NCBI GenBank assembly: GCA_965223845.1
Contig: CBDCXR010000004.1
Coordinates: 2,784,001-2,848,000 of the forward strand
Reading direction: 5' to 3'
From: Planctomycetota bacterium
GTDB taxonomy: Bacteria > Planctomycetota > UBA8108 > SXIK01
DNA length: 64,000 nt
Positions 43,906 through 50,665 of this stretch are shown here, one piece after another (positions within the stretch are counted from its first letter, which is position 1; each line of letters starts with the position of its first letter). A model generated the notes under the pieces. That model was not told where the DNA came from and ran no database searches. It saw only the letters and a program-made list of their open reading frames with translations. A program made the translations under genes and the position numbers.

Positions 43906-45195
43906 TTACTCGGGCACGATCTTCATGTGTCGCTTCTTCCCCCGCCGGAGGAGGATCTCTCCGTCAACGAGATCCGCGGCCGTCACGACTCGATCCTCGT
44001 CCACCGACTCTCCGTTCAAGTAGAGCCCGCCCTGACGAGCCTGTCGACGCGCGTCGTTTCTCGAATCGCAGAGCTTCGAGCTCGCGCTCAAATCGACGAC
44101 GGAGATTCCTGACTCGAGATCGGCGCGCGGTACGGCGTAGGTCGGAACGGAGTCACCGCCTCCGGTCTTTCCGCCGCCGAAGAGCGCCCTCGCACCCTTT
44201 TGCGCGGCCTTCGCCTCCTCCTCGCCGTGCGTGAGACGCGTCGCCTCGAACGCGAGCACTTCCTTCGCCTTCCGGATGTCCGCGCCTTCGAGTCGATCGA
44301 GAGCTTCGATTTCCCCAAGGTCGAGAAACGTAAAGACACGCAGGTACCGCCCCGCGTCGCGGTCGTCGGTGTTGACCCAGAACTGGTAGTAGTCGTACGG
44401 GCTCGTACGCTCGGCGTCGAGCCAGATCGCCCCCTTCTCCGTCTTCCCCATCTTCTGACCGCTGGCGGTCGTGATGAGGGGCGTGGTGAGAGCGTGGGCG
44501 CGTCGACTGTCGGCGCGGCGAATGAGCTCGAGGCCCGCGACGATGTTCCCCCACTGATCACTCCCGCCCATCTGGAGCGCGCAGCCGTACTTCCTCGAGA
44601 GGACGAGGTAATCGTAGGCCTGGAGGAGGCTGTAGTTGAATTCGAGAAAGGACAGCCCCGCCGGCGACGCGAGTCGCAGCTTCACGCCCTCGGCCGCAAG
44701 CATGCGGTTCACGCTGAAGTGGCGTCCGACGTCGCGGAGGAAGTCGAGGTAGTGAAGGTCGAGCAGCCAGTCCGCGTTGTTGAGCACGATTCCGCGCTCT
44801 TCCTTCGGATCGTCGCTCGGCGCGAGGTCGAGGTAGCGCGAGATCTGCTCCCGCTGCGCGGCGAGATTCGCGGCGACGGCACCCTCGTCGAGGAGCTTTC
44901 GCATCTCCGTCTTGCCGCTCGGGTCGCCAACGAGACCCGTGCCGCCGCCCATGAGGACGATGGGGCGATGGCCTGATCGCTGGAGGTGAGCGAGAAGGAT
45001 GACCTGCACCAGGTTTCCGACGGTGAGGCTCGGCGCGGTCGGATCGAAGCCGATATAGGCCGTGACGCGCTCCTCCGCGAGCAGCTTCTCGAGCGGTCGC
45101 TGATCGGTCTCGTCGTCGCTCGTCTGATGGATGAGTCCGCGCTCGCGGAGAGCGCTCAGGAAATCGCTCACGGACTTCGCCTCGTTCGTGCTCAA
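43906..45195 (-). CDS. tyrS: Tyrosine--tRNA ligase
   Basis: YIGFDPTAPSL, GDPSGK, EFNYSLLQAYD, QMGGSDQWGN, KMGKT, S4-like C-terminus ending RRGKK. Confidence 0.96.
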   Translation of the reverse strand: MSTNEAKSVSDFLSALRERGLIHQTSDDETDQRPLEKLLAEERVTAYIGFDPTAPSLTVGNLVQVILLAHLQRSGHRPIVLMGGGTGLVGDPSGKTEMRKLLDEGAVAANLAAQREQISRYLDLAPSDDPKEERGIVLNNADWLLDLHYLDFLRDVGRHFSVNRMLAAEGVKLRLASPAGLSFLEFNYSLLQAYDYLVLSRKYGCALQMGGSDQWGNIVAGLELIRRADSRRAHALTTPLITTASGQKMGKTEKGAIWLDAERTSPYDYYQFWVNTDDRDAGRYLRVFTFLDLGEIEALDRLEGADIRKAKEVLAFEATRLTHGEEEAKAAQKGARALFGGGKTGGGDSVPTYAVPRADLESGISVVDLSASSKLCDSRNDARRQARQGGLYLNGESVDEDRVVTAADLVDGEILLRRGKKRHMKIVPE

Positions 45196-45596
45196 ACTAG
45201 TTCACTCCCGGATCCGCGCGACTCGGGCCACACTTGCGCGAGCTCTTCGAGCGCGCCGCAGACGAGCTCGGCCGCGTGAACCGAGTCGTCGTCGAGCCCG
45301 CCGGCGCGCGACGAGAGCTCTTCGACGTCGAGCGCGGCGCACTCGGCTCTGGTCCGTCCCACCAACCAGTCGGCGAGGATCGAACCGCAGACGATCGACG
45401 CAGCGCAGCCGTAGACCTGGTAGCGACAGTCCGCGACCTCGCCGCTCGGCCCCCACTGAACGTAGAGATCGATCAGGTCCCCACACCGATCACCCTCGAC
45501 GCGGATCTTGGCGTCCGGATCCGAAAGCACGCCGGCGCGCCTCGGACACGTAAGGTGTTCGTCGAAAGGATTCTTCTCGGGGTCGAGCGGGTCCAT
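45192..45596 (-). CDS. IscU/NifU N-terminal-like Fe-S scaffold protein
   Basis: H..CPRRAG, CGD, YGCAASIVCGS; the canonical third Cys (HC) is HA. Confidence 0.8.
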   Translation of the reverse strand: MDPLDPEKNPFDEHLTCPRRAGVLSDPDAKIRVEGDRCGDLIDLYVQWGPSGEVADCRYQVYGCAASIVCGSILADWLVGRTRAECAALDVEELSSRAGGLDDDSVHAAELVCGALEELAQVWPESRGSGSELV

Positions 45597-45617
45597 CGCA
45601 CGAGCAACGGACCGAGC

Positions 45618-45935
45618 CTAAAGAAGCTCGTCGAGCTTGCTCTTATACTGCGACTTCGGATAGAGGCCGACGAGCTGATCGACGACCTCACCGCCCTTGA
45701 AGAGAAGCACGGTCGGAACGCTCATGATGCCGTACTTTCCGGCGGTGTCCTGCGCCTTGTCGATGTCGACCTTGCCGACCTTCGCCTTGCCGTTGTACTC
45801 GTCGGCCAGCTCGTCGACGATCGGGGAGAGCTGCTGACACGGCGGGCACCAAGTCGCGCCGAAATCTACGAGAACCGGCTGCTCCGCCTGGAGGACTTCC
45901 GTCTCGAAGTTGGTGTCGTCGAAATCGAGCGCCAT
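45618..45935 (-). CDS. trxA: Thioredoxin
   Basis: LVDFGATWCPPC and YGIMSVPTVLLFKGG. Confidence 0.93.
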   Translation of the reverse strand: MALDFDDTNFETEVLQAEQPVLVDFGATWCPPCQQLSPIVDELADEYNGKAKVGKVDIDKAQDTAGKYGIMSVPTVLLFKGGEVVDQLVGLYPKSQYKSKLDELL

Positions 45936-46266: not shown

Positions 46267-48879
46267 ATGAATCACGCCCGCGTCGATCGACCTCTCGCGT
46301 CCCGTCTCCGCTCCCTCCGCCGCAGGCCGAATCAGCCGGCCGCACGTTCGTTCGTGTTCCCTGCCATCGCAATCGTCGCGCTGGCGATCGGGACGGGCGG
46401 CGGCGGGCTCGAGGCCGGGCAAGACATCTTGGGGCTGGGCGGCGGGGCGTCGTCGTCGAAGGTGAAATGGACGTTGTCGGTCGAGCCGACGACCGCGGCT
46501 CCGGGGGACGAGGTGACCGTGAAGGCGGCGTATGATGTCCAGGCGAACTGGTACCTCTATGCCCCAGATCACGATCCAGAGAAGGGGCCGGGTCGCCCCC
46601 TCAGCTTTGCGGCCGGGCACACGTCGTTGTCGCCCGTCGGGGCCGTCCGGTTCCCGAGTCCAGGCGTCAAGCGTCAGGAGGACCTCGGCTGGGAGTTTCG
46701 AATTCTCTCCGGCGAAGGCGCCCTCGAGCAGACGTTTCGCGTGAACTCAGATGCGAGCCCCGGGGACGTCGCGATCGCGGTCAAGATCGAAGGACAGGCC
46801 TGCGACCCATCTCTCTGTATCGACCAATCTTTCGCTGATTCGGTAACTCTTGCCATCGCGACGGCGTCGACGACTTCCGACTCGGCGGCAGCCAGCGTAG
46901 TAGGTACGACGGGCGGTGACGAGAACGAAGGCACGCCGCCCGGTACGCCATCCGTTCTCGAGAGCCCACAAGGCTTGTTCCGTGGAGCCGATTCCACCAA
47001 GTCGCGCGCCTCGTGGCGCTTCGAGGTCGAACCCGCGACGGTGAATCGCGGCGAGACAATTACGATCGCCGCGCACTACAAGCTCGACCACGGTTGGCAT
47101 ATCTACTCGCCGGACTACAAGGGAATCGGAATTCCGACGGCGATCGGTGTCGCGAGCGATCCCACACTCGCGCGCTTCGGTAAGCCCACGTTTCCGCCCC
47201 CGAAGCTCGGAATGATGGCCGGCATGACGGAGCCTCAGCGATGGCTCGAAGGCGAGGGAACGATCCGGCAACGATTTACGGTGCCGCCCGCCGCGAGTCC
47301 CGGCCCGCTCGAGCTTTCCGTGAAAGTCGATTTCCTGACCTGCACGGAAACCCAGTGCCTCCTTCCAGAGGCGGCGTCGGACAGGCTGTCGGTCACCGTA
47401 TCGGACGCACCGCCGGTGCGAGTTCGCGGACTTCCGGCCGGCGACGACCTCGGGCCGGAAGACGCGCCCGCTCCTCCGCGGGCCGAGCCAGACGATGACG
47501 CGGACGAGGTGCCTCTCGGCGATCAGCCGCTCTGGCCATTCATGCTCGTCATGATCGGCGGCGGGCTGTTTACGCTCGTCATGCCGTGCACGTACCCCAT
47601 GATCCCGATCACGATTTCGTACTTTACGAAGCAGGCGGAAGCGAGAAGCGGATCCGTGCTCCCGCTCGCGCTCACGTACGGCGCGGGCATCGTCGTGATC
47701 TTCAGCGTCATCGGAGTGGCATTCGGAGAATCGATCATTCCGTTTGCTCAGTCGTGGCAGCTCAATTTCCTCTTCTTCCTGCTCTTCGTCGTGTTCGCGC
47801 TCGCGCTCTTCGGCATGATCAATCTCCGCCTCCCGGCGTCGTTTTCTAAGCTTGCGGGTCAAGCGTCTCAAAGACAGGGATATCTCGGCGTTTTCATCCT
47901 CGGCACGCTCCTCGTCGTAACGTCGTTCACGTGTACCGCGCCGATTCTCGGTGGACTGCTCTTCGGTGCCGCGGCGGGAGACGTGTCGACGGGTAGACTC
48001 CTCATGGGAATGAGCGTTTTCGGCGGAACCGTTGCCGCTCCGTTCGTGCTCCTCGCACTCTTTCCCGGTCGCGTTCAGAACTTGCCGAAAGCGGGCGAGT
48101 GGATGAACGTTCTCAAAGTGTCGCTCGGCTTCATTGAGCTCGCCGCCGCCGTAAAGTTTCTGTCGACGGCAGACCTGGGCCTCAAGCTCGGCCTTCTCCC
48201 GCGCGAGCTCTTCCTCGTGATCTGGGCCGCGATCGCCGCGGTCCTCGGCTTCTACTTGCTCAATTTCTTCCGCATGAAGACCGACAAGACGGAGTCCATC
48301 GGAGCGATCCGCATGCTGTCGGGGCTCGCGGCGCTCACGCTCTGCTTTTACTTCCTCGTCTGGCCGGTCGCGGGATTCAAGTTCGGCTGGGTCATGGCTT
48401 CGATTCTGCCTCCCTATTCCGCCGAGAAGCGGATCGACCTCGGTGGTGATGCTCCCGCGCCTGCGGGTGTTGACGCCGCGGCGAAAGAAGGGACGCCGTG
48501 GCCGATCGTGAAGGACGACCTCGCCGCAGGGCTCGAGCTCGCGAAGACGCTGGGAAAACCTGCTCTCATCAATTTCACGGGGCACACATGAACGAACTGC
48601 CGACTGATGGAAGTTTCCGTCTTCACGAAACCTGAGATCACGGCGCTTCTCGCGCAGTACGTCGAGGTTCGTCTCCACGTCGACGACCCCGATTCACCGG
48701 AAAAGACGAAGCGGCACCTCGCCTACCGGAATCGACTCGTACAGTCCGTGGCGCTCCCGATCTACGCGATCGTCGAGCCCGACGAACCCGAGACGCTCCT
48801 CAAGCGGTTCGACGGCGCGGACATTTCGGGCAAACGGTTCGGCGCGTTTCTGGAGAACTACCTTCGGAAGCGTGGTTAG
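46267..48879 (+). CDS. dsbD: DsbD-family thiol:disulfide interchange protein, probable selenoprotein (UGA at 48589-48591)
   Basis: Two DsbD-N-like domains (CDPSLC, CTETQC); transmembrane domain (MPCTYPMIP, SFTCTAP, PKAGEWM); thioredoxin domain INFTGHT-TGA-TNCRLME continuing in frame to 48879. Confidence 0.85.
48606..48621 (+). promoter_or_regulatory. Candidate bacterial SECIS hairpin
   Basis: GATGGA-AGTT-TCCGTC: 6-bp stem with a GU-containing tetraloop 20 nt after the UGA. Confidence 0.6.
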
Positions 48880-49105
48880 GTGTGCGTTCGGCGGCGGCAG
48901 CTCGTCCCGCCGCGCGACCGGCGCCGGCCGCTCCGGTCTGCGCGCGGAGTCTCAGATTCCGGCCGCGTCACGCGGCCCACCCGTCCCCCAAAGCCCTTGC
49001 CCCCGGCTCCAGATCCCTTTAAGCTCGGAACTTAGGCTTTCTCCCCACTCCCACCAGCCTTCCGAGCGATTCCCCCCTTTCGGGTGGGGGCGAAGGAGAT
49101 CTCGT

Positions 49106-50665
49106 TTGGTTTCGAACCATTCCCCCGATCCCGCACCGCGCGGCGCTCGCCCCTCCGTGCCCAGGCCTCGGGTCGCCCGCTCCGCCGTTTCCGTCGCGGC
49201 AGCGCTTCTCCTCGCGGCGATCTTCGCCGGCGGACGAAACGAAGCGTCGGAGACGGCGCCGGCCGGTCATGTGCGCTGCACGGAGTGCGATTCGAAAGGC
49301 CGGGAGAAGTGTCCCGACTGCGCGGGAAAAGGGATGCTCGCCCGAACCTGTCCCGATTGCGGCGGATCCGGCGAGCGCTCCTGCGTCACCTGTTCGGAGG
49401 GTGAGAACGCCGCTGGCGCGGGTCGTGTGCACTGCTCCTACTGCGGAGGCTCGGGGACGACGGGCTCGGACGAGACGCGGGTCTGTCCTCGGTGTAAGGG
49501 GCAGCAGACTCTAGCCTGCCCGTCCTGTTTCGGTCGGGGTCACAAGAACTGCCGGAAGGTCATTCGCGACAAGGTCTGCCCGAGGTGCCGGTTCTCGGGG
49601 CGGATCACGTGCCGGACCTGCGAGGGGAAACGTTGGCTCAATCCAGCCGTGCTGCGGGCGCGGAAGGCGGCGCCGCTCAAGGCGACGAGTACCGCGACGC
49701 CGTCGAGCGCGACTACGCGCGGCGCTAGCGAGACGCTCGACGTCCGCCGAACGATCCGCGACGAATCGGACGATGCGAAGCCCGAGCTCGCTCCGATCCC
49801 CGAGCTCCGCACTCGGTTCGCGAAGCTCGCCCCACGGCTCGACTTGCATTTCGAGCTCTTCGCCAACGACCTCCGGCTCGACGCACGCGACTTCGCCGAT
49901 GATGCGCGCGTGCTCGAGCGCCAAGTTCGGCGCGAATCGTCCGTGGCCCTCGCGAAGATTTCCGAAGAGCTCGAATCCGTGATCGAGTCGTCGCAGCGAT
50001 TCGTTCGGCGGTGGAGCGAGCTGCAGCCCTTGTTCGTACGCGAGTACAAGGCGCACGAAAACGCGACCCGTACCTGGGAGACCTACGACAAGCGATCGCG
50101 CGGACTCACCGGATCCCGCCTCGCCCGCCTCGAGAAGGAATACCACGGGCGCCTGTCGACGACGACCCGCATCGCCGAGTCGCGCACGCGAGAGCTCAGC
50201 GAGAAGAATCCCGAGGGACTCCAAGCCGATTTGAAGGCGATGCGTCTCACCGTGGCCGAGCTCGCGAAGCGGTCGAAGCGCGAACTCAAACTCGCGGCGG
50301 CGGAACGGAAAGCGGCCGAGGCCGCCGCCGAGACCGACGCCCGATCGCGCGACCCCGCTCCCGACTCGGGATCAGCGAAGCGGCAGAACCGACGCTCGTC
50401 CGCCACCGGACGGTCGAACGGGACAAAGTCGCGCGCCGCGTGGATCACGTCGGCGAATCGGTCATCGCAGCGCGACGAAGACTCCGGCGCGCGGGCGGAA
50501 TCTCGCCGAGATCGCTCCGATCGAGCGGCGCCGAAACGCAAGGACGACGAAGCCGACGGCGGTGGAGGCTCGTTCGGCCCGGTAGTCGCGGCCGTCGTCG
50601 GCTTCCTCGTCGCGTGCGGAGTGTTCCTTCTTCGCGGGTTTTTCCGCGGGCGGTTGACGGGTTGA
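49106..50665 (+). CDS. Protein with DnaJ-type zinc-finger repeats, coiled coil and C-terminal TM helix
   Basis: TTG with AAGGAG RBS; N-terminal hydrophobic helix; nine CxxC(xGxG)-type repeats; C-terminal VVAAVVGFLVACGVFLL. Confidence 0.75.
   Translation: MVSNHSPDPAPRGARPSVPRPRVARSAVSVAAALLLAAIFAGGRNEASETAPAGHVRCTECDSKGREKCPDCAGKGMLARTCPDCGGSGERSCVTCSEGENAAGAGRVHCSYCGGSGTTGSDETRVCPRCKGQQTLACPSCFGRGHKNCRKVIRDKVCPRCRFSGRITCRTCEGKRWLNPAVLRARKAAPLKATSTATPSSATTRGASETLDVRRTIRDESDDAKPELAPIPELRTRFAKLAPRLDLHFELFANDLRLDARDFADDARVLERQVRRESSVALAKISEELESVIESSQRFVRRWSELQPLFVREYKAHENATRTWETYDKRSRGLTGSRLARLEKEYHGRLSTTTRIAESRTRELSEKNPEGLQADLKAMRLTVAELAKRSKRELKLAAAERKAAEAAAETDARSRDPAPDSGSAKRQNRRSSATGRSNGTKSRAAWITSANRSSQRDEDSGARAESRRDRSDRAAPKRKDDEADGGGGSFGPVVAAVVGFLVACGVFLLRGFFRGRLTG

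Follow-up and report, generated by a model that had tools for sequence, protein, structure and literature searches.

The window analysed here is a 64,000-nt stretch of contig CBDCXR010000004.1 from a Planctomycetota bacterium, and all gene coordinates below are window positions. Positions 46267..48879 of its forward (+) strand very likely form one gene of 870 codons, running from ATG 46267 to TAG 48877-48879. Judged from sequence comparison, the product would be an inner-membrane thiol:disulfide reductase of the DsbD superfamily in which a single in-frame UGA is decoded as selenocysteine (Sec, written U in protein sequences). An earlier sequence-only reading of the window had proposed a probable selenoprotein at this place. 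Our results support that proposal, and those of the refutation tests it named that were run did not refute it.

A single reading frame with one in-frame UGA

The list of open reading frames (ORFs) and inspection of the sequence place a 774-codon ORF at 46267..48591, with TGA 48589-48591 as its final codon. Past this codon the frame stays open, continuing ACG AAC TGC CGA CTG ATG GAA and onward to the terminal TAG. A 90-residue ORF (48607..48879) starts within this extension, at the Met of a conserved 'ME'. The two ORFs constitute one frame of which the TGA is the sole interruption, as the sequence-only reading had claimed. When the TGA is translated as U, the product has 870 residues and reads ...INFTGHT-U-TNC-RLME..., with U775 (48589..48591) and C778 (TGC, 48598..48600), the putative resolving Cys, forming a UxxC motif. 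The TGA thereby falls on the first Cys of FTGxxCxNCRxME, the CxxC motif of DsbD thioredoxin domains, again as had been proposed. This CxxC is carried by 115 among the 120 database homologues listed, and three of the other five (P0017, P0039 and P0040) break off just ahead of it.

Read-level confirmation of the TGA, also called for earlier, comes from assembled Logan contigs, which are possibly the source of the assembly itself. Those from three runs (two samples, one study) are identical to the window across 48300-48900, TGA included. Because they match without a differing letter, the TGA is no consensus slip. Run X5 yields a single 151-nt contig that ends short of the TGA. The sequencing runs listed for this sequence include none of RNA.

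The expectation that annotation pipelines would misread the gene proved correct. The public gene calls P0017, P0039 and P0040, together with the window's own call P0002, end exactly at ...NFTGxT, and hence are cut at the UGA. Calls cut in this manner lose the C-terminal (gamma) domain and its active site, such that the gene can be mistaken for a pseudogene. The 83 TGA forms among the 122 site-spanning matches that we found in 301 Planctomycetota genomes are affected in this way.

The UGA is conserved and alternates with cysteine codons

A six-frame search of 40 related genomes produced matches in 36 at E <= 1e-20, and 30 orthologous loci were examined. TGA occupies the identical alignment column in 29 of these, within N[FW]TGxx-TGA-xNC[RK]xME, and the remaining locus (L032) ends before the site. 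We also compiled named relatives, which are the best 80 of 502 matches to the full-length query and thus are biased to close relatives. Nearly all are Planctomycetota assemblies, with one cultured isolate, Saltatorellus ferox Poly30. Among the 79 named Planctomycetota loci that cover the site, 76 carry TGA, and the position of C778 is Cys in all 79.

A search of 301 Planctomycetota genomes with the C-terminal 251 residues matched 123, and 122 of the matches span the site (84 with one TGA and 38 with no stop). In the match from genome G076 (L102; C85:1185-1889) the active-site column holds TGT and the TGA lies elsewhere in the matched stretch, so that the phylum divides into 83 TGA forms and 39 forms with TGC/TGT or no stop. 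Site codons were read from 99 aligned loci: 73 TGA, 19 TGC and 7 TGT, with TAA and TAG never present. The ratio of 73 to 26 is not a prevalence, because 40 of these loci were chosen by hand, 20 from rows without a stop and 20 from rows with one TGA, the second group including G076. The alternation of Cys and UGA codons in homologues, suggested earlier as a check, is therefore seen at exactly this site. TGA was not encountered at any of the redox positions 179, 184, 359, 364, 441, 556 and 778 in the 110 loci examined for them.

A tree of 94 sequences, built with the site masked, requires at least eight changes between Sec and Cys forms, at least four of which fall on well-supported branches. 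The window protein lies inside a 32-member clade composed entirely of TGA forms (Shimodaira-Hasegawa-like approximate likelihood ratio test, SH-aLRT, 96). Downstream of the UGA the protein is conserved, including RLHTD and P.Y.I.D motifs, and in a 26-sequence alignment T29, C33 (the U position), C36 and R37 are invariant.

These data bear on whether the gene is a pseudogene, that is, a Cys-type DsbD struck by a nonsense mutation whose downstream part is decaying. A lone in-frame stop does resemble a fresh nonsense mutation, and public gene calls end at it. However, 65 distinct sequences, drawn from many planctomycetotal families, share a TGA at this column, and the stop at the site is always TGA rather than TAA or TAG. 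Moreover, the 95 codons downstream are open and conserved as protein, and every member of the clade that holds the window protein shares the TGA. The pseudogene explanation is almost certainly wrong.

A search of the bacterium's own genome with the C-terminal query revealed no Cys paralogue of this part of the protein, the sole other match scoring 21 bits. Two matches elsewhere in the phylum have uncommon configurations. That in genome G072 (C3:481429-482136, L068) contains one TGA and one TAA. Genome G155 has a TGA-form match (C9:1153918-1154577) as well as a shorter match without a stop (C10:1442795-1443160), possibly a Sec/Cys pair of paralogues.

Selenocysteine machinery and the genetic code

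The genome, 7.93 Mb in 4 contigs, contains the complete set of genes that the sequence-only reading had suggested looking for. Its tRNA-Sec scores 68.1 bits against the Rfam model (cut-off 47), and ARAGORN calls it tRNA-SeC with anticodon tca. Matches for selA (536 bits), selB (320 bits, or 353 when its C-terminal piece is counted) and selD (308 bits) likewise exceed their family cut-offs. Across the phylum set, selA is found in 82 of the 83 TGA-form genomes, in 32 of the 38 Cys-form genomes, and in 221 of all 301.

Bacterial near-cognate tRNAs are known to read through UGA, and homologues carry Cys at the site in question. The UGA could accordingly be imagined to specify a standard amino acid, either through near-cognate Trp or Cys decoding or under a reassigned code. 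We consider this extremely improbable. TGA is the ordinary stop of six of the nine neighbouring ORFs, among them the NifU_N gene identified by Pfam, and hence the code is not reassigned. In addition, the genome has a full Sec system, the TGA form is accompanied by this system across the phylum set, and Sec forms exceed Cys forms in the strength of the RNA structure downstream of the site (see below).

Two features of the Sec genes in this genome are recorded here as observations in their own right. The selD gene (L017:1390-3744, - strand; about G000:C4:5317130-5319484) encodes a 784-residue fusion in which a Pyr_redox_2 domain (residues 40-333) precedes the SelD AIRS and AIRS_C domains. The fusion has no in-frame stop, and thus its active site is Cys-type or other. 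The genome also has a second selenoprotein gene, for a glutathione peroxidase with one in-frame TGA (VASR-U-GL; G000:C4:6272189-6272506, L200).

A candidate SECIS hairpin downstream of the UGA

Bacterial selenocysteine insertion sequence (SECIS) elements, under criteria of the bSECISearch type, have an apical loop about 16-37 nt past the UGA and a G early in this loop. The window contains a candidate, GAUGGA-AGUU-UCCGUC (48606..48621, + strand), with this geometry. Its arms GATGGA (48606-48611) and TCCGTC (48616-48621) form six pairs, one of them U-G, and enclose the loop AGTT (48612-48615), which has G at its second position. The distance from the A of the UGA to the first loop base is 20 nt. 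In a 45-nt context, the hairpin is the core of every low-energy structure.

Relatives carry hairpins as well. Close relatives have GAUGGA-GGUC-UCCAUC at the same place, some others pair GAUGGAAGA with UCUUCCAUC, and in sister families GGAAAAU and AUUUUCC enclose a loop of GGU or GGC. The Met-Glu codons fix the 5' arm; the 3' arm is drawn from different codons in different clades. The register of the stem varies among clades, so that no single consensus structure fits them all. For 15 sister-family sequences, four pairs are predicted, one of which shows an AU/GC exchange. A similar 6-bp hairpin, ACUCGA-GUC-UCGAGU, is found in the glutathione peroxidase gene mentioned above, with its loop 25 nt after the UGA.

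Since the Met-Glu codons are common to both forms, Cys forms serve as a control for coding constraint. The mean z score of the downstream fold is -1.77 for Sec forms (n=65) versus -0.56 for Cys forms (n=26; Mann-Whitney p 2e-4). Similarly, a hairpin of -7 kcal/mol or better is found in 30 of the 65 Sec forms versus 3 of the 26 Cys forms. On these sequence comparisons, the hairpin at 48606-48621 is probably the SelB site. Its support derives from relatives and not from its own fold energy. The SECIS hairpin claimed by the sequence-only reading is present and its geometry fits, but in this sequence alone it is indistinguishable from shuffles.

Several observations count against the selenoprotein interpretation or narrow its support. 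Folding of the 65 nt that follow the UGA gives -14.6 kcal/mol and a z score of -0.96, a stability equalled in 30 of 200 shuffles. The hairpin alone is worth -5.8 kcal/mol, and the z score for 55 nt is -0.30. Among the 12 closest sequences, the consensus fold has five pairs and no compensatory change, so structure is inseparable from codon conservation in this group. The contrast between Sec and Cys forms is tied to phylogeny: only four independent pairs lie on supported branches, which is too few for significance to be reachable, and these average 2.3 in the expected direction and 0.3 in the opposite one. One genome, G258, has the TGA form and no selA over the cut-off (best match 50 bits), and its tRNA-Sec match is borderline (50.6 bits, cut-off 47). 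That assembly is 90% complete in 140 contigs. The Logan contigs that retain the TGA may be the source of the assembly, and are in that case weak as independent support. Finally, the product falls below the cut-off of every NCBIfam model.

The weakness of the window's own hairpin would also suit a scenario in which Sec is never inserted and two products are made, namely a 774-residue alpha-alpha-beta protein and a 90-residue peptide initiated at ATG 48607. The 90-residue ORF does open with this ATG, and termination by release factor 2 (RF2) competes with Sec insertion at UGA in known systems, as described in the passages covered of PMC4513850. Nevertheless, the ATG is the conserved Met of 'xME', which also is found in Cys forms. 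The 90-residue piece would begin inside the first thioredoxin helix, and thus would lack strand 24-29, U775 and C778. The retention of selA in 82 of the 83 TGA-form genomes also argues against this scenario, which we judge very unlikely.

Domain architecture and predicted fold

The putative selenoprotein has the layout of a DsbD-type reductase, and all of its segments are given here on the + strand. A Kyte-Doolittle scan identifies an N-terminal hydrophobic segment at residues 30-48 (46354..46410), likely a signal peptide or signal anchor. Two DsbD_N (alpha-like) domains follow. The first, residues 76-186 (46492..46824), contains C179-x4-C184 and scores 25.3 bits against Pfam PF11412 (cut-off 25) when residues 1-240 are scanned alone. 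The second, residues 259-371 (47041..47379), contains C359-x4-C364 and scores 34.9 bits against the same model when residues 241-421 are scanned alone. The 870-residue read-through product with two N-terminal Cys-pair domains, as described in the sequence-only reading, is thus recovered, with each pair inside a DsbD_N match. Two separate alpha Cys sites, 136-211 residues apart, occur in 63 of the 79 named relatives. These tandem redox-active alpha domains with conserved Cys pairs are the feature least covered by the literature found.

The membrane (beta) domain spans residues 421-705 (47527..48381), with about eight hydrophobic segments and the cysteines C441 (MPCTYP) and C556 (FTCTAP). Pfam DsbD_TM (PF02683) matches residues 423-633 with 92.9 bits, and both cysteines are Cys in 80 of the 80 named relatives. 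With eight segments, the two termini would face the same compartment, an arrangement that E. coli DsbD shares. The Cys and Sec residues listed for the protein are C179/C184, C359/C364, C441, C556, C693 and U775/C778. C693 (48343-48345) lies in the last membrane segment. It is also Cys in 14 of 16 sister-class loci of families f4 and f6 (L033-L048), and its column holds Ala, Gly or Ser in most other relatives, with Cys in 1 of the 79 covered named loci.

The C-terminal thioredoxin-like (gamma-like) domain comprises residues 749-838 (48511..48780) and the site U775-T-N-C778, and matches Pfam PF13899 (Thioredoxin_7) with 33.1 bits. An AlphaFold2 (AF2) model of the C-terminal 96 residues, made with the 26-row alignment, has a predicted local distance difference test (pLDDT) score of 96.7. 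In this model, strand 24-29 precedes the U and helix 34-43 follows it, which puts the residue at the N-terminus of the first helix. The model supports an assignment of U775 to the classic thioredoxin active-site position, that of the attacking Cys. The best solved relative by sequence is PDB 3f9u (E 3.8e-10), in which FTGYGCVNCRKME aligns with the site. This structure is the C-terminal domain of a protein from Bacteroides named 'exported cytochrome c biogenesis-related protein'. Fold matches of the AF2 model include the E. coli DsbD-gamma structures 2fwh and 1uc7, with query-based TM-scores (TMq) of about 0.7, and 3f9u is also among the best.

Relationship to known families

The gene does not represent a new class: since 2004-2008, catalogues have included UxxC thioredoxin-fold selenoproteins under the name 'thiol:disulfide interchange protein'. 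One model relevant to them is cd02953, which we take to be the DsbD-gamma model. In the passages covered, the Global Ocean Sampling (GOS) survey reports 22 Sec sequences and 2,098 Cys homologues under 'Trx-like 2' / cd02953 (PMC2398784). Reviews of 2022 and 2026, in the parts covered, place the UxxC 'thiol:disulfide interchange protein' family under PF13098 with representative WP_011366075.1, and trace it to Kryukov and Gladyshev 2004 (PMC9312934, PMC13188914). To judge from these published descriptions, our protein resembles the catalogued families in having UxxC in a thioredoxin-like domain, Sec in place of the first Cys, and many Cys homologues. It differs in that PF13098 scores 20.1 bits here, under the cut-off of 27, and in its host phylum, the hosts named in the passages covered being Deltaproteobacteria and marine metagenomes. 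No full-length Sec-containing DsbD was found in the literature passages covered. The passages covered of PMC4807772 Table S9, which gives planctomycete selenoprotein candidates, include 'thiol-disulfide isomerase-like thioredoxin' entries and no DsbD.

Like the protein-disulfide reductase DsbD (DipZ) of E. coli (PDB 2fwh, 1uc7, 1vrs), the protein starts with an immunoglobulin-like Cys-pair region, continues with an eight-segment membrane domain that contains two Cys, and ends in a thioredoxin-like domain, and its gamma fold matches with a TMq of about 0.7. Unlike E. coli DsbD, it has Sec for the first gamma Cys and a second alpha-like domain. The Cys pairs of alpha are spaced as Cx4C here and as Cx5C in E. 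coli DsbD, and the gamma domain is nearer to the Thioredoxin_7 type and to Bacteroides 3f9u than to E. coli gamma. The identification as 'DsbD' in the sequence-only reading therefore holds at the level of the superfamily, whereas the score for the E. coli-type subfamily NF001419, 135.4 bits, falls below the curated cut-off of 330.

ScsB of Salmonella, Proteus and Caulobacter is described, in the passages covered, as a protein of eight membrane segments whose alpha and gamma domains are periplasmic and whose alpha region consists of two tandem immunoglobulin-like folds, with a CX3C redox motif in the first alpha subdomain only (PMC10907172). The membrane segments, the periplasmic domains and the tandem alpha arrangement are shared with our protein. 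Here, in contrast, both alpha subdomains bear Cx4C pairs, which disagrees with the published definition of ScsB. No ScsB family model scored in NCBIfam, no ScsC-like neighbour is present among the window ORFs scanned with Pfam, and the literature passages covered contain no report of ScsB as a selenoprotein.

TsoB, a rhodanese/DsbD fusion-like selenoprotein, combines a rhodanese domain with two Sec in a UxxxxU motif, according to the source passages covered. It resembles our protein in being a selenoprotein with a DsbD-type membrane domain, and differs in that the protein studied here has one Sec, in UxxC, and no match for a rhodanese domain. The score for TsoB (NF045694) is 130.2 bits, below the cut-off of 805.

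Neighbouring genes

A cytoplasmic thioredoxin gene (45618..45935, - strand) with the active site WCPPC lies 330 bp upstream of the reductase gene and is transcribed divergently (Pfam PF00085, 99.6 bits). By analogy with the TrxA-DsbD pair of E. coli, it is a possible electron donor. The gene belongs to a divergent cluster (43906-45935, - strand) that also encodes a NifU_N-like scaffold protein and a tyrosyl-tRNA synthetase. Downstream, a 597-codon ORF (48872-50665, + strand) starts with GTG 48872 and overlaps the last 8 nt of the reductase gene, with which it may be co-transcribed. Its product has many CxxC repeats, a hydrophobic C-terminus and no Pfam match.

Proposed mechanism and implications

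We propose that the UGA at 48589-48591 would be decoded as Sec by SelB and Sec-tRNA(Sec), the small hairpin 15-30 nt beyond it being the probable recruitment site of SelB. A fraction of the ribosomes would be expected to stop at the UGA and release a 774-residue product without the last domain. In the full-length protein, electrons might pass from cytoplasmic thioredoxin to the membrane pair C441/C556, as homology with E. coli DsbD and ScsB suggests, and from there to the periplasmic thioredoxin-like domain, in which the Sec of U775-x-x-C778 would act as the attacking nucleophile. U775/C778 would in turn reduce the two N-terminal immunoglobulin-like domains (C179/C184 and C359/C364), and these would reduce substrates in the envelope. 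Sec would thus be the nucleophile of the domain through which the membrane electron channel is connected with the periplasmic arms.

A more far-reaching possibility, which we offer tentatively and regard as rather unlikely, is that in much of the Planctomycetota the main envelope-reducing relay of the membrane is a selenium-dependent variant that differs from DsbD as well as from ScsB and in which both alpha arms are redox-active. The gamma nucleophile is Sec in the majority of the site-spanning matches (83 of 122) and has switched with Cys at least four to eight times. The two alpha domains would then serve two different sets of substrates.

On this tentative view, the supply of periplasmic reducing power in genomes such as this one, where the query used revealed no Cys paralogue, would depend on selenium. 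If the cell has no relay of this kind other than the protein, disulfide reduction in the envelope would hinge on the supply of selenium, and the dependent processes, by extension from DsbD and ScsB, would be cytochrome c maturation, disulfide isomerisation and peroxide defence. The repeated switches between Sec and Cys constitute natural pairs with which the benefit of Sec in a thiol-disulfide relay can be tested.

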